Positions 2,942-32,461 of a DNA stretch of 64,000 bases are shown here, in pieces; the first letter of the stretch is position 1, and each line of letters begins with the position of its first letter. Below the pieces are notes generated by a model. The model did not search any database and had not been told where the DNA came from. It saw only the letters and a list, made by a program, of their open reading frames with translations. The position numbers and the translations under genes are program-made. Origin of the DNA: Escherichia coli (lineage in GTDB: Bacteria > Pseudomonadota > Gammaproteobacteria > Enterobacterales > Enterobacteriaceae); assembly GCF_045037415.1 (NCBI RefSeq), contig NZ_CP173439.1. One strand, given 5' to 3'.

Positions 2942-3450
2942 GATGATTGATCTGATATTATCACGGTTCGTGAATTATAGTATGTCACTATTATTTATGC
3001 TTTAGTGAACCAGAAAAAATCCCCCGTTGGTATAGGGGGATATGTAAGGAGAAATAACTTCGCAGGTGTTCTTGTTTGTATTATAACGTGAAAAGAATGC
3101 ACGCAACTTAATTAATCTGCCGTACTTCCTTTCAGTTTTCAAGATAAGGTTTATAATAAAACATGGAATGGAAGCAAGCTTTAAGGTTTCAGCTCTAAAA
3201 TTTTTAATATCTATTAACTAGCTAGTTGTTGTCCTTGTGAGCATGTTGTATATAAAAGCTAGGATAATATCCTGACCGGAGTATTCATATTCCTTATCCC
3301 CTCTGTGTTCTCAGAGGTTTTTTTCTGTATTTAATGATATGAGCTGGAATGCGATTCCGGCCCCCCCCGTTTACATAATTCTCCCTGACATACGGCACCG
3401 GAATCGCATTGATTTTGCATTGCTAATGTCTAACTGTGCTGGTGAATGTT

Positions 3451-3488
3451 GGGGGCAGTTTGGATATCGAAAATTATTGTACGTTAAG
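3451..3488 (+). repeat. 38-bp Tn3-family-type terminal inverted repeat (copy A)
   Basis: Starts GGGG, ends ACGTTAAG as in Tn3-family IRs; related copies at 5787, 13586, 27905. Confidence 0.75.
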
Positions 3489-3554
3489 GTTGTTTTTTGA
3501 CCTTGTCGGGGTCCGCCTGCGGGCAGTAGAGATCATATAAGGTATTCAATAACG

Positions 3555-3830
3555 TCATGATGCGGTTATCCCCGATACGGTAATATACCATTTTACCTGC
3601 CCGTCGGGTTCGACCAGCTTCAGGCGACGCATGACACCCAACTGCTGAGACAGGGTCGGCTGAGTGATACCGACCGCCGCTTCCAGCTCGGTCACATTCG
3701 CTTCCCCCTGGCTTAACTGACACATCAACAATAGCCGGTCGCTGTTGGCCAGTCCCCGTAGGACATCTGCTGCCCCCAGGGCTGCATTTTTCATATCAGT
3801 CTGACGTTTTGTGTCTTCATTCATGGGCAT
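3555..3830 (-). CDS. ArsR/SmtB-family transcriptional regulator (BigR/YgaV-like)
   Basis: Winged-HTH region LLLMCQLSQGEANVTELEAAVGITQPTLSQQLGVMRRLKLV; divergent from the CoADR-rhodanese gene; start codon uncertain. Confidence 0.7.
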   Translation of the reverse strand: MPMNEDTKRQTDMKNAALGAADVLRGLANSDRLLLMCQLSQGEANVTELEAAVGITQPTLSQQLGVMRRLKLVEPDGQVKWYITVSGITAS

Positions 3831-3990
3831 TGCTGGTTTCTTATATTATGTATTTTTATATAATATTGTTCAGTATAATGATAGTGGCGTAATTTTGCCA
3901 CCGTGATCTTCAGGTCTGCAGCGTCCAGCTGGACCGGGTAACTAATTATATATGGCAGATATTTTGCCCCGAGTGAACAGAGAGGATGTA

Positions 3991-5649
3991 ATGAAAATAG
4001 TGATTGTTGGTGGTGTTGCCGGGGGAGCATCCGCTGCAGCCAGGGCTCGTCGGTTATCAGAGGATGTCAGTATTGTTGTGTTTGAGCGGGGAAGCGATGT
4101 CTCTTTCGCCAACTGTGGATTGCCTTATCATATAGGCGGAAAAATTCCGTTACGGCAGTCGCTGATTCTGAAAACCCCGGAGGATTTTAAATCCCGTTTT
4201 AACATAGACGTCCGTATCCGTCATGAAGTGATGTCAGTAGACCCGGTTAATAAGATGGTGACGGTTAAAAATCTGACCTCCGGGGAGGTCTATACCGAAG
4301 AATGGGATCGTCTGCTCCTCAGTACCGGTGCCGCTCCGGTTGTTCCCCCCTTGCCCGGACTACAGGAAGCGGGTGTCTTTACACTGCGAAATCTTACTGA
4401 CATGGATGCTATCCAGGCGTGGATTGAGCAACATAATATCGCTCACACCACGCTTGTCGGGGGGGGATTTATCGGGCTCGAAGTGATGGAGGCACTGAGC
4501 GAAAGGGGGATCAGTGTGACCCTGCTGGAGATGGGGGAACAGGTTATGGCTCCGGTTGATCCTGAAATGGCATCGGCCCTGCATCAGGAAATCAGGAGTC
4601 ATGGCGTGGATCTGCGTCTCAGAACGGCGCTCACCGAGGTACTGCGGACAGAGACGGGATTCCGCGTTGCACTGTCTGACGGTGGGTTTCTGCAGACCGA
4701 CATGGTTATTCTCGCCATCGGGGTAAAACCTGAGAGCAGCCTTGCCACAGGAGCCGGGCTCGCCGTGGGTAAACGGGGAGGCATAAGTGTCAATGCCTGT
4801 ATGCAGACAAGTATCCCTGACATCTATGCCGTGGGGGATGCAGTTGAAACACCTGACCTTGTCTTTCAGGAACCCGCTAATGTTCCTCTGGCAGGGCCAG
4901 CCAACCGCCAGGGACGCATTGCTGCTGATAATATGCTCGATCGTCACAGCCTTTACCATGGCAGTCAGGGGACATCCATTTGTAAGGTATTTTCGCTGAG
5001 TATTGGCAGTGTCGGGGCGAATGAAAAGCAGCTGAAAGCCCATGGTACCCGATACGAGAAGGTTTACGTCCATGCCGCTGATCATGCCAGTTACTACCCG
5101 GGGGCAACAATGATCAGTCTGAAACTGCTGTTCAGCCCCGATACCGGTAAAATTCTCGGGGCCCAGGCGTCAGGGAAAAAAGGGGTTGATAAACGCATCG
5201 ATGTCCTGGCTGTCGTACAGCGCGCGGGGCTTACCGTTAACGATCTCGAGCATCTGGAGCTGACCTATGCTCCGCCTTTCAACAGTGCAAGGGACGTCGT
5301 TAACCAGGCTGGAATGGTGGCGGCAAATGTTATCAAGGGTGATACGGTCATCTGTCATGTCCGCGATGTGTTACAACGGGAACCGGGCAGTTATTGTTTA
5401 CTTGATATTCGTTCTCCTGCAGAACTGAAACAATTTGGTGAATATCCTGACGCGCTATCCATCCCTCTTGATTCCCTGCGGGAGAATCTTGATAAGTTGC
5501 CTGAAGATAAAGAGATTATTATCGGGTGTCAGAGTGGTCTGCGGGGGCATGTGGCATACCGTATGCTTCAGTCTCACGGCTTCCGGACATATAATCTGAG
5601 TGGTGGTTTTATAACTTGGCAGGCGGTTACGGAATCAATGAGTCAATAA
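3991..5649 (+). CDS. CoA-disulfide reductase-like flavoprotein with C-terminal rhodanese domain
   Basis: N-terminal FAD motif IVGGVAGGASAA, redox Cys in SFANCGLPY, second Rossmann fold GGGFIGLE, C-terminal rhodanese with active-site Cys in IGCQSGLRG; AGAGG RBS before ATG 3991. Confidence 0.8.
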   Translation: MKIVIVGGVAGGASAAARARRLSEDVSIVVFERGSDVSFANCGLPYHIGGKIPLRQSLILKTPEDFKSRFNIDVRIRHEVMSVDPVNKMVTVKNLTSGEVYTEEWDRLLLSTGAAPVVPPLPGLQEAGVFTLRNLTDMDAIQAWIEQHNIAHTTLVGGGFIGLEVMEALSERGISVTLLEMGEQVMAPVDPEMASALHQEIRSHGVDLRLRTALTEVLRTETGFRVALSDGGFLQTDMVILAIGVKPESSLATGAGLAVGKRGGISVNACMQTSIPDIYAVGDAVETPDLVFQEPANVPLAGPANRQGRIAADNMLDRHSLYHGSQGTSICKVFSLSIGSVGANEKQLKAHGTRYEKVYVHAADHASYYPGATMISLKLLFSPDTGKILGAQASGKKGVDKRIDVLAVVQRAGLTVNDLEHLELTYAPPFNSARDVVNQAGMVAANVIKGDTVICHVRDVLQREPGSYCLLDIRSPAELKQFGEYPDALSIPLDSLRENLDKLPEDKEIIIGCQSGLRGHVAYRMLQSHGFRTYNLSGGFITWQAVTESMSQ

Positions 5650-23970: not shown

Positions 23971-24007
23971 ACGTATCCTCTCGTCTAAAACAACGGCTAT
24001 ACAACGA

Positions 24008-25954
24008 TTATGGGTTATTTTTTATCGTCTCCCCGGGAACCGCGCTTTTGCGCCGCATCACCCACAGCGCCACCAGCGCCGCGAGCAGCAATACGACCTG
24101 CGGTAACAACGTTTCCACGTAGGGATAAATCCCCAGCCAGCTGATTTCAGGGAAGCCGTTAATCAACGTAGGCTGGAACAGTTTGCCTTCCACCAGTTCC
24201 AGAACGCCTTTGCCCGCAAAGACGAAGGCCATCAGATACATGAAACTGCCGGTAAACATAAAGAAGGGTTTCAGCGGCAGGCGCACTACTGAGTAACGCA
24301 TCACCAGCCAGGCGAGCAGCAGCACCACGCAGCCAATCACAAAACCGGCGCCAATCGCCATATGGCCGGATACCGTGTTTGCATCGCCAATCAGAGCGTA
24401 ATAGAACAGCACCGTTTCCGCCCCTTCGCGGTACACCGCCAGGAAGCTGGTCAGCCATAGTCCGACCAGGGAGCCTCGCGACAGGGAATGAGACAGTTTG
24501 CCTTCCAGCCAGGCTTTCCAGTGGCGCGCTTCCACTTTGGACAGCAGCCAGTAACTCATAAAGAACAGCATCACGACGGCAATCAGCATCGTTATGCCTT
24601 CCAGCAGTTCACGGCTGGCGCCGGAGTTAGTAAACAGCATCTGGAAGATAGCGGCGGTGATGACGCTGGCGATCAGCGCCACAATTACCGACTGACGAAT
24701 AAGCGGCAGCTTATCCTGATGGTTGTTTTTCACCATGTAGGCCACGATTGCCGCAACAATCAGCAGCGCTTCCAGCCCCTCGCGCACGATGATCATCAGA
24801 CTATAGAGCAGCAGACTCCACTGGGTTTCTTCGCCTTCGCCCAGCATCGTCACGGCTTTTTGCAGATCCTGCGCCAGCGCGCTGGCCTCTGCATTCAGGC
24901 GCTCAACCGGCTGACCGGCCTTCATCAGACTGACCAAGCGGGTAAAATACGCCTCCAGCGTGGTTTTAAATGCCGAATCGCGAGAGCCGATTTTGTTTTC
25001 CATGCCGCTGGCTTCGAAGCGGTCGAAGTAGGTATCCTGGATATCCAGAATCGCATTCTTCGCATCGCCGCCCTGATAGCGCGCTATCGCGTCCTGAATG
25101 CTCTGGTTAATTCCCGTCGTCACCTCAGCCCAGTCGGTGCGGTTATTTCCCTCGTCCGCCGCCGGAATGTTGTCTGCGCTTTGCGCTGCGGCAACCTGCT
25201 GATCGTCACGGGTGGTTGGCAAGCCGGGTAAGATATCCTCGATATCCTGTAGCAGCGTAGTGACCTGATAGGAGACATCGTTGAGATGGTCAGGTTGCGC
25301 GGTCAGCGCAATCAGGGATGAGAATTGTTGGTTAATGGAGGCGGCATCTTTTGCAGAACGGTTTTGTCTGAGGGACATCTCCATCTCAGAGTTTTTAAAG
25401 CCCTGATAGTGCGCCTGTTGAACGTGCTGACTGGCAACGCTGTAATTCCCGGCCTGATATTCAGTGACCGCCTGCGCCAGCAGATCGTCGATCGTCCTGA
25501 AACTCTCCTGCCAGTGAACGGCAATGTCGTCCCTGGACAGCGCGTTGTGCTGCTCTTCGGCCACCAGACGATGTCCGCCATCCAGCACCGGTTCCACTTC
25601 GCGCAGTGCGGCTTTCAGCCAGTCAATGCGCGCCTGGACGTCAGCGAGCGGTTTTTTCTCGCCAATCATTCGACGGATCTCGCCGAATGCGCTCTCCATC
25701 TCGTAACTTTTGCGCGCGGAAATGTTGATGCGGATCGGCCCTTCCAGGTTCTCGAACACCTCAAAATAGGCCATTTGTACCGTGCGGCGCGCCTCGTCGG
25801 CATGCTGTTGCTGATAAAGTTCCGCTGTTTTATCAAGACGTTGCTCGATATCTTCAATCAAAGGCGCATAATTCGTCGACGCCCAGACACTCATGCTTAT
25901 AAACAAGCCAAAGAGAGTAACCAACAAAGAGTTACGAAAGTTACGCACGTGCAC
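24008..25954 (-). CDS. Ftr1-family iron permease with N-terminal periplasmic domain (FetM-like)
   Basis: Signal peptide, about 350-aa periplasmic domain, then permease with two REGxE motifs (REGLEA, REGAET). Confidence 0.75.
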   Translation of the reverse strand: MHVRNFRNSLLVTLFGLFISMSVWASTNYAPLIEDIEQRLDKTAELYQQQHADEARRTVQMAYFEVFENLEGPIRINISARKSYEMESAFGEIRRMIGEKKPLADVQARIDWLKAALREVEPVLDGGHRLVAEEQHNALSRDDIAVHWQESFRTIDDLLAQAVTEYQAGNYSVASQHVQQAHYQGFKNSEMEMSLRQNRSAKDAASINQQFSSLIALTAQPDHLNDVSYQVTTLLQDIEDILPGLPTTRDDQQVAAAQSADNIPAADEGNNRTDWAEVTTGINQSIQDAIARYQGGDAKNAILDIQDTYFDRFEASGMENKIGSRDSAFKTTLEAYFTRLVSLMKAGQPVERLNAEASALAQDLQKAVTMLGEGEETQWSLLLYSLMIIVREGLEALLIVAAIVAYMVKNNHQDKLPLIRQSVIVALIASVITAAIFQMLFTNSGASRELLEGITMLIAVVMLFFMSYWLLSKVEARHWKAWLEGKLSHSLSRGSLVGLWLTSFLAVYREGAETVLFYYALIGDANTVSGHMAIGAGFVIGCVVLLLAWLVMRYSVVRLPLKPFFMFTGSFMYLMAFVFAGKGVLELVEGKLFQPTLINGFPEISWLGIYPYVETLLPQVVLLLAALVALWVMRRKSAVPGETIKNNP

Positions 25955-25970
25955 ACCGCCAAAGAATACA

Positions 25971-25988
25971 AATGATAATTATTATCAT
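25971..25988. promoter_or_regulatory. Fur box upstream of the Ftr1/P19 operon
   Basis: AATGATAATTATTATCAT, 17-35 bp upstream of the permease start. Confidence 0.55.
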
Positions 25989-26240
25989 ATCTTTTTGTCG
26001 CGTTGTACATGACCTGGATCATAAAAATGTCAGCAGACGACAAGTTATGTAAACTTATTTCATCAAATCGTGATGAACACACACATTATGCGTTGATAAA
26101 AGGGACGTTATCTCCCTGTTTTTCTCATGGAATTAACGGCAAGGCAGGCGCGGTAACAGAGGAATAAATCCCCCTGCCGACAGTGATATTATTCATTATC
26201 GGCAGGCAGAAATAAAACGCGTTATTGCGTACAGCAATAT

Positions 26241-27002
26241 TCAAAGATTAAGGTTATTTCGATCGCTGGCAAGACGCTGTAAGAATTGACCATATCCCTG
26301 CGGCCCCATCCAGTAGTTAATACTTTTCTCAACGCCGGTTGATGTCAACGTCGCACCGGAAATACCGTCAACGGTATATTCATCGGCATGTTCAGGTTTA
26401 TCCTGTACTATTTTCAATGCAGGATGTCCGCTGTTATCTAATAATCGTTTCCCTGGCCACTGTTTGCGCCAGTTGGCGTCTTCCACCCTAGCCCCCAGAA
26501 ACGGCGTTTCCCGTTGCTGATAATAATACAGATTTCTCACCGTACGACCGTCCAGCCCCAGAGCAAGAAACGCATGCATCATGGATTTCGCGCCCTTACC
26601 GGTAACTGGAATGATAACCTGCTGAATTTCATTATTTTTATCTTTCACAAAGAACACATCCGCCACCGTACAGCGCTGACGAACCTGCGCTGGGTCGCGT
26701 TCAGGGGCAAGTTTTTCACACTTCTGCCGCGCGGTGTCCGCGCTGCTGCCAGCCACCAGTTCGCCGGAATCTAAATTAACATGGCGTTGAATAATATAAC
26801 GATGATAGAGCGTTTCGACTGATTTTTTATCCTGGGTCTCTGATTTCATCAGGCCCGCAGCGTGTAAAATTGCCGCCTGTTTTTCCTCCTCTGTCGGCTC
26901 CGTCATTTCTCCCTGGAACAGCATAAACCATGCCGCCGCCGCAACAAAAATAAGGACACAAAGCACCATCATTGATGCAACAATAATTTTACCCTTGCGC
27001 AT
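26241..27002 (-). CDS. FMN-binding-domain protein (NqrC/RnfG-like), membrane-anchored
   Basis: N-terminal TM anchor; flavinylation-type motif VDGISGATLTSTGV. Confidence 0.6.
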   Translation of the reverse strand: MRKGKIIVASMMVLCVLIFVAAAAWFMLFQGEMTEPTEEEKQAAILHAAGLMKSETQDKKSVETLYHRYIIQRHVNLDSGELVAGSSADTARQKCEKLAPERDPAQVRQRCTVADVFFVKDKNNEIQQVIIPVTGKGAKSMMHAFLALGLDGRTVRNLYYYQQRETPFLGARVEDANWRKQWPGKRLLDNSGHPALKIVQDKPEHADEYTVDGISGATLTSTGVEKSINYWMGPQGYGQFLQRLASDRNNLNL

Positions 27003-27238
27003 TGAATTGTTATCCCTGTCAAAATGGAAATCGAAAAAATCGCCTGAACGTATCACAGACTTTCATTCAATTAAAACAGATATGCCATTATCAATTCAGG
27101 TTTGCAACGTCAGGCAGCGGTAAAAAATAATAACTGGCGTCGGTAAAAAAGCAGCAAAAATAACAGAAAACACGCTCTCCGCTCGTTTTACACATCCTTA
27201 CAATGGGTTAAAAAATGCCGGGTTTCCCCGGCACGCTA

Positions 27239-27745
27239 TCAAAACATGGCTGCCCGCCACAGACGTAACTTCATGCCCCAGTAGCTGGTCCAGCCGCTGG
27301 TCGTAGTTACCACCTGCCCCTTCGACACCACCACCAGCGTTGGCGTGACGCTGATTTCCCAGTTTCGTGATATCTCACCGCCGCTATCATTCACGACGGG
27401 GAACGTCACCCTTTTACGCGATAACCAGCGGGAAACCTCCCCGTCATTACCGGAACGCAGCGCGATGGTCATGACGCTCTCCCCTTCCGACTGCAAACGG
27501 GCGACATCCGGCGTGGTGAAACGGCAGATACCGCACCAGCTCGCCCAGAAGTAGAGCAGCACCGGGCGTTCTTCACTGATCGACGCCAGCGTTACGGTTT
27601 CCCCGTCCAGCGTATGCAGCGGCGTGCTGTCAAACATGGCCGGCATCTGCGGAGAACGCCAGACATCCAGCAGGATTATCACGCCAGCCAGCAGAACCAG
27701 TAAGATCGCGCCTTCACGCAGCCAGCGGCGCAGTTTACTGAGCAT
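27239..27745 (-). CDS. ScsD/TlpA-like thioredoxin-fold protein
   Basis: TM anchor plus WASWCGIC motif; rho-independent terminator (GCCGGGGAAACCCGGC then T-run) downstream. Confidence 0.7.
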   Translation of the reverse strand: MLSKLRRWLREGAILLVLLAGVIILLDVWRSPQMPAMFDSTPLHTLDGETVTLASISEERPVLLYFWASWCGICRFTTPDVARLQSEGESVMTIALRSGNDGEVSRWLSRKRVTFPVVNDSGGEISRNWEISVTPTLVVVSKGQVVTTTSGWTSYWGMKLRLWRAAMF

Positions 27746-27904
27746 GGGCCACCGCCAGTTTTTCTTTCACCACCGCCTCAAGGGTCTCCCACGATACCGC
27801 GCCGGGGATCATCTCGTCGCCAATGATGGTTGCCGGCGTCCCCTGAACGCCAACCAGCCGGGCGAGTTGCAGATTGGTGCTCAACGTCTCCATGCTTTTC
27901 TCAT
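27735..27904 (-). pseudogene. DsbA/ScsC-like thiol-disulfide oxidoreductase, C-terminal remnant
   Basis: C-terminal DsbA-like sequence GVQGTPATIIGDEMIPGAVSWETLEAVVKEKL overlapping the scsD-like start; 5' portion replaced by IR copy C. Confidence 0.6.
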
Positions 27905-27942
27905 CGGGGTCAGTTTGGATATAGAGAATTATTGTACTATAA
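27905..27942 (+). repeat. 38-bp Tn3-family-type IR (copy C, solo)
   Basis: GGGGTCAGTTTGGATATAGAGAATTATTGTACTATAAG, 36/38 identical to copy D. Confidence 0.75.
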
Positions 27943-28198
27943 GGGCTTCCCCGGCATGTCAACGCCGGTGTTTACGGTTTCTGTCTGCACTATAGTAAAA
28001 AAATAAAGGGGAGAGACTGCGGTACTATAAACGGTCATGATGAATCGTCATCGATTCGGACCCTGATGAAAGACGCTCGTGAGGCTCTAGTTCGTTAGTC
28101 GGGTACACTTGCCCTGTACAATAAGCAGATATACCTCACGGGGTCTAACCCTTTATCATCAACGAGTTGCAGATCAGATGGTCATACAGCTTTGTACT

Positions 28199-28512
28199 TT
28201 AGCTGGCTGAGTACAACCTGAAATCATCACCGTAATGCAATGATGCCCAGCACAGTCTTGCATTTTTGGCAGCGATGGCAACAACAGCGCGCCAGTATCC
28301 TCTGCGTTCGACCAGTGAGCAGACCCAACGACTGAATAAATCAGTCCTTTTCTCCGCCCCGATCAGTACCGAGCGGGCACCCTGAACCAGAAGTGTTCTC
28401 AGATACGAATCGCCAGCTTTCGTTATCCTGCCAAGCTTCGACTTTCCGCCGCTGCTGTACTGCGATGGTGTCAGTCCCAGCCAGGCTGCCAGCTGGCGCC
28501 CATTCTTAAAAT
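28199..28512 (-). pseudogene. IS110-family transposase C-terminal fragment, cut by IS26
   Basis: LGRITKAGDSYLRTLLVQGARS is typical of IS110/IS1111-family transposase C-termini; abuts the IS26 end at 28513. Confidence 0.55.
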
Positions 28513-29332
28513 GGCACTGTTGCAAAGTTAGCGATGAGGCAGCCTTTTGTCTTATTCAAAGGCCTTACATTTCAAAAACTCTGCTTACCAGGCGCATTTC
28601 GCCCAGGGGATCACCATAATAAAATGCTGAGGCCTGGCCTTTGCGTAGTGCACGCATCACCTCAATACCTTTGATGGTGGCGTAAGCCGTCTTCATGGAT
28701 TTAAATCCCAGCGTGGCGCCGATTATCCGTTTCAGTTTGCCATGATCGCATTCAATCACGTTGTTCCGGTACTTAATCTGTCGGTGTTCAACGTCAGACG
28801 GGCACCGGCCTTCGCGTTTGAGCAGAGCAAGCGCGCGACCATAGGCGGGCGCTTTATCCGTGTTGATGAATCGCGGGATCTGCCACTTCTTCACGTTGTT
28901 GAGGATTTTACCCAGAAACCGGTATGCAGCTTTGCTGTTACGACGGGAGGAGAGATAAAAATCGACAGTGCGGCCCCGGCTGTCGACGGCCCGGTACAGA
29001 TACGCCCAGCGACCATTGACCTTCACGTAGGTTTCATCCATGTGCCACGGGCAAAGATCGGAAGGGTTACGCCAGTACCAGCGCAGCCGTTTTTCCATTT
29101 CAGGCGCATAACGCTGAACCCAGCGGTAAATCGTGGAGTGATCGACATTCACTCCGCGTTCAGCCAGCATCTCCTGCAGCTCACGGTAACTGATGCCGTA
29201 TTTGCAGTACCAGCGTACGGCCCACAGAATGATGTCACGCTGAAAATGCCGGCCTTTGAATGGGTTCATGTGCAGCTCCATCAGCAAAAAGGGATGATAA
29301 GTTTATCACCACCGACTATTTGCAACAGTGCC
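28513..29332 (-). mobile_element. IS26
   Basis: 14-bp terminal repeats GGCACTGTTGCAAA at 28513-28526 and inverted at 29319-29332; 820 bp; Tnp26 ORF. Confidence 0.95.
28565..29269 (-). CDS. tnpA: IS26 transposase Tnp26
   Basis: 234-aa ORF starting MNPFKGRHFQRDIILWAVRWYCKYGISYRELQEM. Confidence 0.95.
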   Translation of the reverse strand: MNPFKGRHFQRDIILWAVRWYCKYGISYRELQEMLAERGVNVDHSTIYRWVQRYAPEMEKRLRWYWRNPSDLCPWHMDETYVKVNGRWAYLYRAVDSRGRTVDFYLSSRRNSKAAYRFLGKILNNVKKWQIPRFINTDKAPAYGRALALLKREGRCPSDVEHRQIKYRNNVIECDHGKLKRIIGATLGFKSMKTAYATIKGIEVMRALRKGQASAFYYGDPLGEMRLVSRVFEM

Positions 29333-30505
29333 ATTCTGAGCACTGTCGCGCTCGACGCTGTCGGCATCGGCCTGATTATGCCGGTGCTGCCGGGCCTCCT
29401 GCGCGATCTGGTTCACTCGAACGACGTCACCGCCCACTATGGCATTCTGCTGGCGCTGTATGCGTTGATGCAATTTGCCTGCGCACCTGTGCTGGGCGCG
29501 CTGTCGGATCGTTTCGGGCGGCGGCCGGTCTTGCTCGTCTCGCTGGCCGGCGCTGCTGTCGACTACGCCATCATGGCGACGGCGCCTTTCCTTTGGGTTC
29601 TCTATATCGGGCGGATCGTGGCCGGCATCACCGGGGCGACTGGGGCGGTAGCCGGCGCTTATATTGCCGATATCACTGATGGCGATGAGCGCGCGCGGCA
29701 CTTCGGCTTCATGAGCGCCTGTTTCGGGTTCGGGATGGTCGCGGGACCTGTGCTCGGTGGGCTGATGGGCGGTTTCTCCCCCCACGCTCCGTTCTTCGCC
29801 GCGGCAGCCTTGAACGGCCTCAATTTCCTGACGGGCTGTTTCCTTTTGCCGGAGTCGCACAAAGGCGAACGCCGGCCGTTACGCCGGGAGGCTCTCAACC
29901 CGCTCGCTTCGTTCCGGTGGGCCCGGGGCATGACCGTCGTCGCCGCCCTGATGGCGGTCTTCTTCATCATGCAACTTGTCGGACAGGTGCCGGCCGCGCT
30001 TTGGGTCATTTTCGGCGAGGATCGCTTTCACTGGGACGCGACCACGATCGGCATTTCGCTTGCCGCATTTGGCATTCTGCATTCACTCGCCCAGGCAATG
30101 ATCACCGGCCCTGTAGCCGCCCGGCTCGGCGAAAGGCGGGCACTCATGCTCGGAATGATTGCCGACGGCACAGGCTACATCCTGCTTGCCTTCGCGACAC
30201 GGGGATGGATGGCGTTCCCGATCATGGTCCTGCTTGCTTCGGGTGGCATCGGAATGCCGGCGCTGCAAGCAATGTTGTCCAGGCAGGTGGATGAGGAACG
30301 TCAGGGGCAGCTGCAAGGCTCACTGGCGGCGCTCACCAGCCTGACCTCGATCGTCGGACCCCTCCTCTTCACGGCGATCTATGCGGCTTCTATAACAACG
30401 TGGAACGGGTGGGCATGGATTGCAGGCGCTGCCCTCTACTTGCTCTGCCTGCCGGCGCTGCGTCGCGGGCTTTGGAGCGGCGCAGGGCAACGAGCCGATC
30501 GCTGA
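29294..30505 (+). CDS. tetA: Tet(A)-type tetracycline efflux MFS transporter, 5'-truncated by IS26 and in frame with an ATG inside IS26
   Basis: Sequence from LSTVALDAVGIGLIMPVLPGLLRDLV to GQRADR matches class A TetA; native first ~10 codons replaced by IS26-derived MISLSPPTICNSAI; function not established. Confidence 0.7.
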   Translation: MISLSPPTICNSAILSTVALDAVGIGLIMPVLPGLLRDLVHSNDVTAHYGILLALYALMQFACAPVLGALSDRFGRRPVLLVSLAGAAVDYAIMATAPFLWVLYIGRIVAGITGATGAVAGAYIADITDGDERARHFGFMSACFGFGMVAGPVLGGLMGGFSPHAPFFAAAALNGLNFLTGCFLLPESHKGERRPLRREALNPLASFRWARGMTVVAALMAVFFIMQLVGQVPAALWVIFGEDRFHWDATTIGISLAAFGILHSLAQAMITGPVAARLGERRALMLGMIADGTGYILLAFATRGWMAFPIMVLLASGGIGMPALQAMLSRQVDEERQGQLQGSLAALTSLTSIVGPLLFTAIYAASITTWNGWAWIAGAALYLLCLPALRRGLWSGAGQRADR

Positions 30506-30536
30506 TCGTGGAAACGATAGGCCTATGCCATGCGGG

Positions 30537-31295
30537 TCAAGGCGACTTCCGGCAAGCTATACGCGCCCTAGGAGTGCGGTTGGAACGTTGGCCCAGCCAG
30601 ATACTCCCGATCACGAGCAGGACGCCGATGATTTGAAGCGCACTCAGCGTCTGATCCAAGAACAACCATCCTAGCAACACGGCGGTCCCCGGGCTGAGAA
30701 AGCCCAGTAAGGAAACAACTGTAGGTTCGAGTCGCGAGATCCCCCGGAACCAAAGGAAGTAGGTTAAACCCGCTCCGATCAGGCCGAGCCACGCCAGGCC
30801 GAGAACATTGGTTCCTGTAGGCATCGGGATTGGCGGATCAAACACTAAAGCTACTGGAACGAGCAGAAGTCCTCCGGCCGCCAGTTGCCAGGCGGTAAAG
30901 GTGAGCAGAGGCACGGGAGGTTGCCACTTGCGGGTCAGCACGGTTCCGAACGCCATGGAAACCGCCCCCGCCAAGCCCGCTGCGACGCCGACAGGATCTA
31001 GCGCTGCGTTTGGTGTCAACACCAACAGCGCCACGCCCGCAGTTCCGCAAATAGCCCCCAGGACCGCCATCAATCGTATCGGGCTACCTAGCAGAGCGGC
31101 AGAGATGAACACGACCATCAGCGGCTGCACAGCGCCTACCGTCGCCGCGACCCCGCCCGGCAGGCGGTAGACCGAAATAAACAACAAGCTCCAGAATAGC
31201 GAAATATTAAGTGCGCCGAGGATGAAGATGCGCATCCACCAGATTCCCGTTGGAATCTGTCGGACGATCATCACGAGCAATAAACCCGCCGGCAA
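30537..31295 (-). pseudogene. pecM: EamA/PecM-like DMT-family transporter, 5' end abutting IS1
   Basis: Ten-TM EamA-like protein convergent with tetA as in Tn1721-type contexts; the reading frame stays open into IS1 with no ATG. Confidence 0.5.
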
Positions 31296-31312
31296 CGGGT
31301 AATGACTCCAAC

Positions 31313-31816
31313 TTATTGATAGTGTTTTATGTTCAGATAATGCCCGATGACTTTGTCATGCAGCTCCACCGATTTTGAGAACGACAGCGACTTCCGTCCC
31401 AGCCGTGCCAGGTGCTGCCTCAGATTCAGGTTATGCCGCTCAATTCGCTGCGTATATCGCTTGCTGATTACGTGCAGCTTTCCCTTCAGGCGGGATTCAT
31501 ACAGCGGCCAGCCATCCGTCATCCATATCACCACGTCAAAGGGTGACAGCAGGCTCATAAGACGCCCCAGCGTCGCCATAGTGCGTTCACCGAATACGTG
31601 CGCAACAACCGTCTTCCGGAGCCTGTCATACGCGTAAAACAGCCAGCGCTGGCGCGATTTAGCCCCGACGTATCCCCACTGTTCGTCCATTTCCGCGCAG
31701 ACGATGACGTCACTGCCCGGCTGTATGCGCGAGGTTACCGACTGCGGCCTGAGTTTTTTAAATGGCGGAAAATCGTGTTGAGGCCAACGCCCATAATGCG
31801 GGCGGTTGCCCGGCAT
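31313..31816 (-). CDS. insB: IS1 InsB (expressed as InsAB' fusion by frameshifting)
   Basis: 167-aa ORF overlapping insA in the -1 frame. Confidence 0.9.
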
Positions 31817-32010
31817 CCAACGCCATTCATGGCCATATCAATGATTTTCTGGTGCGTACCGGGTTGAGAAGCGGTGTAAGTGAACTGCAGTTGCCATGTT
31901 TTACGGCAGTGAGAGCAGAGATAGCGCTGATGTCCGGCGGTGCTTTTGCCGTTACGCACCACCCCGTCAGTAGCTGAACAGGAGGGACAGCTGATAGAAA
32001 CAGAAGCCAC
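31735..32010 (-). CDS. insA: IS1 InsA
   Basis: 91-aa zinc-finger/HTH protein [21 protein letters not shown]. Confidence 0.95.
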
Positions 32011-32065
32011 TGGAGCACCTCAAAAACACCATCATACACTAAATCAGTAAGTTGGCAGCATCACC

Positions 32066-32461
32066 CACTTTCTCCTGCCAGAGACGCCGGATATCCTTTT
32101 CATCCCGACCAGTCAGTTTTTTACCGGACAGCAGACGGTTAAGCAGTTCCTGTCTCGCATCCGGTACGTCTTCAGTCAGACGCATAAGCCGGAGTAATTC
32201 CTGACGACTGAGTACCATGCGTGATTCCTCCGGTACGCTGTAATAATTAAAAATACGACTGAATACCCCACAACAGCAGGCAACGGACAGGCACAGGGAT
32301 TTCAGATACAGGCCAGAAACACAGAATGTGGCAACACCACAAAGAATAGCTATAACTAAAAATCCCTTACCCAGTGCCATACACAAAGAACCCTGTTTTC
32401 TGGATATCCGCTCATGCTCATCCAGAATAAAATCTATTTTTTCATTTTCTGATTTATGCAT
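32066..32461 (-). pseudogene. Small membrane protein downstream of traR, C-terminus replaced by IS1
   Basis: ORF 32039..32500 runs 26 nt into IS1 before stopping; hydrophobic segment GFLVIAILCGVATFCVSGLY. Confidence 0.45.

Follow-up and report, generated by a model that had tools for sequence, protein, structure and literature searches.

In the 64,000-nucleotide stretch of Escherichia coli DNA analysed here (contig NZ_CP173439.1; "the window" below), the left end of an IS26 element abuts a Tn1721-type tet(A) gene that has lost its 5′ end, and the tet(A) reading frame continues into the insertion sequence up to an ATG from which a Tet(A)-like fusion protein could be translated. The question raised by this locus is whether it encodes a working tetracycline efflux pump freed from its repressor or a silent remnant of a deletion. 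Comparison of the sequence with related plasmids and with public records, together with a search for expression signals, points to the second answer: The locus is probably a scar of an IS26-mediated deletion with the fusion frame as its by-product, and its tet(A) would be silent or expressed at levels too low for clinical tetracycline resistance. The features on which the argument draws are the following, in window coordinates.

28199 to 28512, minus strand: 3′ remnant of an IS110-family transposase gene, matching profile positions 247-341 of the 343 positions of the NCBIfam IS110 transposase model
28513 to 29332, minus strand: IS26, 820 bp, with IRR at 28513-28526 and IRL at 29319-29332
29269 down to 28565, minus strand: tnp26, transcribed away from tet(A)
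29294 to 29296, plus strand: ATG within the left end of IS26 (complement of IS26 nucleotides 37-39) at which the fusion frame starts
29294 to 30505, plus strand: fusion frame (403 codons and a stop) in which 13 residues from IS26 precede residues 10-399 of TetA(A)
29332 to 29333, no strand: deletion junction at which 1,317 bp of plasmid pDLI.6n are absent
29333 to 30505, plus strand: Tn1721-type tet(A) from codon 10 to codon 399 and the stop, with a protein product identical to that of pDLI.6n
30537 to 31297, minus strand: pecM-like EamA transporter gene belonging to the Tn1721 tet module; a second deletion, beside IS1, has taken its 5′ end
31297 to 32066, minus strand: IS1 bounding the second deletion, in which 5,623 bp are missing relative to pDLI.6n, including the mer operon

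The element next to tet(A) had been recognised as IS26 in the first-pass annotation, and this identification holds. Perfect 14-bp terminal inverted repeats (GGCACTGTTGCAAA), of which the window contains only these two copies, are found at 28513-28526 on the plus strand and at 29319-29332 on the minus strand, and they bound exactly 820 bp at a chance expectation of no such repeats. The single DDE transposase of 234 residues reaches 275.6 bits with the IS6-family model of NCBIfam, whose cut-off is 125, and the element differs by one synonymous base from the annotated IS26 of pDLI.6n (WP_001067855.1). Given the minus-strand orientation of tnp26, the end abutting tet(A) is IRL, which holds the transposase promoter, and tnp26 heads away from tet(A). 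No 8-bp direct target duplication surrounds the element, its flanks being CTTAAAAT on the left and ATTCTGAG on the right, which fits a product of deletion or recombination and is therefore no argument against its identity as IS26.

How this IS26 came to lie inside tet(A) can be read from pDLI.6n (NZ_CP103975.1), an E. coli IncF plasmid of the same backbone that we used as comparator. The alignment has 3 mismatches over the 7,333 bp of window positions 22000-29332 and 1 mismatch over the 1,965 bp of positions 29333-31297, and exactly 1,317 bp of pDLI.6n are missing between these two blocks. In the annotation of pDLI.6n, this segment carries tetR(A) and a small remnant of the Tn1721 tnpA, the control region between tetR and tet(A) with its tet promoters and operators, and 27 bp from the beginning of tet(A). 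Comparison with an intact tetR-tet(A) module, which the first-pass annotation had proposed as a check, thus bears out its view that IS26 has removed tetR, the tetA promoter and the beginning of tet(A); only its estimate of about 10 lost codons needs adjustment, since the alignment gives 9. Neither the 1,317-bp segment nor any other tet gene was found elsewhere in the window. In both pDLI.6n and the window, IS26 occupies the same site in the same orientation with the same allele at its nucleotide 43 and shares the left flank CTTAAAAT; the IS110-family remnant cut by the IRR end is this unchanged left flank.

By its signature, the junction would be a typical product of IS26-mediated adjacent deletion. 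The starting point may have been a pDLI.6n-like IncF plasmid with IS26 located ca. 1.3 kb upstream of a Tn1721 tetR-tet(A)-pecM module, in which the IRL end of IS26 would have been joined to the target ATTCTGAG at codon 10 of tet(A). This could have happened by intramolecular replicative transposition or, equally possibly, by insertion of a second IS26 followed by recombination between the two copies; both routes give the same product and are indistinguishable from sequence. The event would have cost the plasmid the Tn1721 tnpA remnant, tetR, both tet promoters/operators, the native GGAGG site, the GTG start and 9 codons of tet(A). The outward strand of IRL would by chance have been open in the phase that was joined, with an ATG 39 nt from its tip, which left a frame of 403 codons that resembles Tet(A) and is annotated by gene callers.

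Among known systems, IS26 adjacent deletion indeed gives the best fit to the structure of the locus. As in the described cases (PMC7986276), a single IS26 has kept one flank and is newly joined on its other side to the interior of a gene, with the DNA in between lost and no 8-bp duplication. We see no difference in kind, and the sole special feature of the window is that the junction happens to be in phase with an ATG internal to the insertion sequence. With the Tn1721 tetR(A)-tet(A)-pecM module, the locus shares near-identical DNA across tet(A) codons 10-399 and the pecM-like EamA gene (the 1 mismatch in 1,965 bp mentioned above, against the module of pDLI.6n). Unlike that module, it has neither tetR nor the divergent promoters with their operators; the GTG, nine codons and the native ribosome-binding site are gone as well, and its pecM is cut at the 5′ end by IS1.

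IS26 is a classic cause of mis-assembly, and the junction appears in the window's orientation in only 1 of the 5,426 complete E. coli genomes in RefSeq, so a mis-join at the repeated element deserved consideration. We regard it as extremely unlikely, since the one complete genome in question, NZ_CP159754.1, is a complete plasmid (of strain Z22-2) with the same junction and the same product of 403 residues, and since both were found again on at least 10 independent contigs from NCBI, ENA and Logan that read across the junction from one side to the other. On NZ_CP159754.1, the NCBI pipeline annotates the same frame from the same IS26-internal ATG as Tet(A) (WP_224728653.1); the identical protein is already in RefSeq, and the fusion is hence not new. 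We found the exact 403-residue protein on at least 35 public contigs across NCBI, ENA, Logan and UniRef. Ten contigs beyond NZ_CP159754.1 have an identical IS26-tet(A) junction and differ on the other side of IS26, with at least 9 different outer flanks. A search of PLSDB found no record in which the junction is oriented as in the window, and the apparent full-length matches each consist of two separate pieces. Altogether, the junction is real, already catalogued, moved about by IS26 rearrangements, and rare. Our full-text literature search found no paper on this junction, on start codons supplied by IS26 or on IS26 antisense promoters, and no report of a tetracycline MIC or a transcript for any carrier.

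The same junction nucleotide also occurs next to a complete IS26 in the inverted orientation, i.e., with tnp26 directed toward tet(A), in pSBF22a, p2EC1-2 and P3-MCR-8; for three related records, we infer the inverted junction from sequence matches. In the inverted form, a TAA codon lies five codons upstream and there is no in-frame start, and PLSDB lists no coding sequence. A tet(A)-LysR-floR context downstream is common to NZ_CP159754.1 and two of the inverted cases, and the junction nucleotide has been seen with two transposase alleles and with both IS26 nucleotide-43 alleles. For the inverted cases, one possible origin is an IS26 target hotspot at which intramolecular transposition can end in either a deletion or an inversion; alternatively, the element may have flipped by way of its 14-bp repeats, or an inversion product may have undergone a secondary deletion.

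With the junction established, the question becomes what its reading frame amounts to. The earlier reading that the tet(A) frame runs uninterrupted into IS26 and that an ATG at 29294 would add 13 IS26-derived residues is confirmed, and the annotation of NZ_CP159754.1 uses the very same start. The ATG at 29294-29296 lies 39 nt inside the IRL end, and the frame is free of stop codons down to the TGA at 30503-30505. Its translation reads MISLSPPTICNSA, followed by residues 10-399 of the Tn1721-type TetA, identical to the pDLI.6n protein; the native gene starts with GTG and encodes 399 residues. The presence of an in-frame start is no more than what chance gives. Reading outward through IRL, all three phases have a start codon in an open frame (an ATG at -39 in one phase, a TTG at -13 or an ATG at -73 in another, and a GTG at -5 in the third), and the phase used by the fusion has no stop over 228 codons antisense to tnp26. 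Since every phase of IRL offers a start codon, the ATG at 29294 is not remarkable in itself: Its presence is mechanical, and whichever gene is truncated by this end of IS26 in the present orientation receives a nominal start codon.

Whether such a nominal start is ever used depends on a transcript and on a ribosome-binding site. The first-pass annotation had noted that expression would be constitutive if read-out transcription drove it, a route that finds no support in the strand of the neighbouring genes, in the outward -35 box of IS26, which lies past the ATG and lacks a -10 partner, or in the weak, zero-spaced ribosome-binding sequence. In particular, tnp26 is encoded on the minus strand, as are all genes within several kilobases left of IS26, and there would thus be no read-out from them into tet(A). 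The sole documented outward signal of IS26 is the TTGCAA -35 box within its inverted repeat (PMC7986276). In the window, this box is found at 29320-29325, where it faces tet(A) and is located downstream of the ATG at 29294, and it can therefore not serve the fusion frame.

The TTGCAA box might still form a hybrid promoter with a -10 element inside tet(A), as documented for the use of the IS26 inverted repeat as -35 in front of aphA7, blaSHV-2a and blaKPC (PMC7986276; Lee et al. 1990, as cited in PMC2887853). The same box in the same 14-bp repeat faces the adjacent gene in those cases and here. Unlike them, tet(A) offers no suitable -10 at the right spacing, and the box is 3′ of the candidate start: The hexamers located 16-18 nt past TTGCAA (29342-29349) are ACTGTC, CTGTCG and TGTCGC, all of them unlike TATAAT, so that a -10-like hexamer 16-18 bp after the box and upstream of the start used is lacking. 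A transcript from such a promoter would begin inside tet(A) and would have to be translated from the ATG at 29378, i.e., native Met25. The 20 nt ending at 29374, just upstream of this ATG, contain no ribosome-binding sequence, and half of helix 1, with D17, would be missing from the product. We consider this scenario very unlikely, and even if a hybrid transcript existed, the Met25 product would not be expected to confer a resistance phenotype.

Scans for other promoters gave a similar picture. A consensus search of positions 28400-30700 returned no site, and a weight-matrix scan of the plus strand gave best scores of 7.6 and 7.1, which is background given that scores of at least 7 occur about twice per kilobase across the window; none of its candidates begins at the inverted-repeat TTGCAA (29320). 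This matrix is crude, in that the real tnp26 promoter scores only 5.9 and a weak antisense promoter inside IS26 could escape it. We note weak promoter-like matches at 29202-29230 (TTGCAG-17-CAGAAT) and as TAAAAT at 28507-28512 and 28620-28625. In the literature, we found no mapping of transcription starts on the antisense strand of IS26; the transcriptome paper on pBIC1a says of IS26 fragments only that their expression is weak, and the small-RNA paper on pNDM-HK contains nothing relevant on IS26 antisense transcription.

The predicted signals for translation are similarly poor. Pairing with the 16S rRNA 3′ end amounts to -9.5 kcal/mol at a spacing of 5 nt for the native tet(A) GTG with its GGAGG site, compared to -4.2 kcal/mol at a spacing of 0 nt for the fusion ATG of the window with its AAGGG sequence. 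With the common IS26 allele, the fusion ATG would reach -6.6 kcal/mol, also at a spacing of 0 nt. A ribosome-binding site that directly abuts the start codon makes for poor initiation. The difference between the two IS26 alleles is due to an A at 29290 (IS26 nucleotide 43), four nucleotides before the ATG, which is a minor allele found in 414 of the 5,831 E. coli records with IS26. We considered this base as an adaptive mutation and rejected the idea, because it is present in pDLI.6n, which does not have the junction, and in those 414 records, and because it weakens the pairing; judging from this distribution, it is an inherited minor allele of IS26 and no adaptation.

The protein itself is largely that of a genuine TetA. 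The fusion scores 875 bits against the NCBIfam Tet(A) model NF012193 (cut-off 840), with an alignment that begins at profile position 7, and 618 bits against the family model NF012174 (cut-off 475). Its N-terminus is not native, with codons 1-9 gone and 13 unrelated residues in their place. In an alignment of 121 full-length representatives of the family, 114 have at least one lysine or arginine ahead of the column of residue 10, and positions 7-9 are hydrophobic throughout; the 13-residue tail of the fusion contains no lysine or arginine at all and has N-S-A at positions 7-9. From position 10 onward, all of the strongly conserved residues of transmembrane helix 1 (D17, G20, G22, P26 and P29) are kept in the fusion, including D17, which is conserved in 101 of the 121 homologues. 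There is no solved structure of TetA, and the nearest one, that of NorA, aligns only from fusion residue 18 onward and is uninformative on the replaced segment. If made, the fusion protein could plausibly fold and work despite its atypical N-terminus.

Because no promoter facing tet(A) is recognisable, the ribosome-binding sequence abutting the ATG is weak and the N-terminus is atypical, the gene is most likely silent or near-silent. TetA confers resistance already at low expression levels. Together with the intact core of the protein, this makes a functional low-level pump conceivable, and the fusion could then be a working, TetR-independent tet(A) driven by a weak cryptic promoter that is antisense in tnp26 or lies just to the left of IS26. 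Such a promoter would supply a constitutive, scarce mRNA containing the ATG at 29294, and the pump of 403 residues would insert correctly and confer low to moderate tetracycline resistance. The intact frame, the wild-type residues 10-399, the retained core residues of helix 1, the score above the Tet(A) cut-off and the name given by the annotation pipeline would all agree with such an allele, as would the persistence of the junction in many contexts and the promoter-like matches at 29202-29230, 28507-28512 and 28620-28625. These matches, however, occur only at background density and the consensus scan shows none; the weak ribosome-binding sequence directly adjoins the ATG and loses more of its pairing through the inherited A at 29290 (from -6.6 to -4.2 kcal/mol); and the N-terminal tail has neither a basic residue nor the hydrophobic positions 7-9. 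We therefore regard a working allele as possible but unlikely.

The closest precedent for such an allele is IS257, another IS6-family element, which drives tetA(K) in the mec region of Staphylococcus aureus (Simpson et al. 2000, as cited in PMC7986276). There as here, an IS6-family element lies directly upstream of a tetracycline efflux gene and parts it from its own promoter, and the outward promoter at the left end of IS257 lends the idea of a working fusion some plausibility (PMC7986276). In contrast to the window, IS257 has demonstrated outward and hybrid promoters and tetA(K) keeps its own start. The tet(A) coding region of the window is truncated, and no outward promoter is known or was detectable for it in two scans, one of them crude.

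The recurrence of the junction is a further observation that we count against a silent gene: Its presence with at least 9 different flanks and in both orientations of IS26 may point to selection or a target hotspot. One might go further and propose that a functional, repressor-free allele has been made repeatedly, with ATTCTGAG at codon 10 as a preferred target of IS26, though we consider this improbable, more so than a working allele as such. If it were true, a weak antisense promoter of IS26 and a borrowed ATG would give constitutive low-level tetracycline resistance, and sequence-based prediction would call "tet(A) present" while blind to the changed regulation. However, the junction is also found next to inverted IS26, where tet(A) has no in-frame start codon, so its recurrence is no argument for selection on function and its spread needs none. 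We thus favour the reading of the locus as a deletion scar with a probably silent tet(A).

The value of the locus lies in annotation and in the prediction of resistance from genotype. Its protein passes the curated threshold for Tet(A) and is named Tet(A) in RefSeq, so that tools for calling resistance genes will report its carriers as tetracycline resistant. If the gene is silent, the junction would be a source of false-positive resistance predictions; if it is weakly active, it would be a constitutive allele of tet(A). Either way, it involves no new biology and adds a further example of the routine remodelling of resistance regions by IS26.

The window is a portion of an E. coli IncF-type plasmid, and its outer parts carry the following genes, given under one joint range:

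1-22000 and 40000-64000, senB/TieB, a TonB-dependent receptor and an FTR1-type iron uptake cluster
1-22000 and 40000-64000, transfer, export and partition genes (F-type tra, CvaB/MchF-type microcin export and ParM/ParB)

Three features lie between these regions, around IS26 and tet(A):

28199-28512, minus strand, remaining 3' part of a transposase gene of the IS110 family, truncated by the IRR of IS26
28742-30505, plus strand, frame of 587 residues in the ORF listing that starts within IS26 and extends across tet(A)
30537-31297, truncated pecM-like EamA gene

In pDLI.6n (NZ_CP103975.1), a near-identical E. coli IncF plasmid with intact tetR-tet(A), the IS110-family remnant is cut by the IRR of IS26 in the same arrangement as in the window. 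Compared with this plasmid, the window has suffered a further deletion of 5,623 bp adjoining IS1 (31297-32066), which truncated the pecM-like gene by removing its 5' end and also took an EAL-domain gene and the entire mer operon. The 587-residue frame arises because, in the phase of tet(A), the antisense strand of the IS26 transposase gene tnp26 has no stop codon over 228 codons. This frame is a mechanical ORF, predicted from the sequence.

The IS26 copy of the window has an A at its nucleotide 43 (window position 29290) instead of the common G, a minor allele found in 414 of the 5,831 E. coli records with IS26, and its tnp26 carries a private synonymous change at 29012. Both the junction with tet(A) and the 29290-A allele are present as in the window on the metagenome contig L009 (ENA ERZ28577923 scaffold_3107). 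There, the outer flank of IS26 (at about 2190-2200) reads GATAAACTTATC, which itself belongs to the left end of IS26 and thus suggests an insertion into or beside another IS26 fragment.

The junction nucleotide of the window (29332/29333; tet(A) codon 10, target ATTCTGAG) recurs identically in other plasmids that carry a complete IS26 in reversed orientation:

3195-4074, reversed IS26 case in L002 (NZ_CP067236.1)
1758-2574, reversed IS26 cases in L015 (NZ_CP047573.1) and L016 (NZ_CP087672.1)

These reversed junctions comprise two transposase alleles and differ in their outer flanks, which, together with the shared junction nucleotide, suggests either a target hotspot at tet(A) codon 10 or an IS26 that flipped in place.
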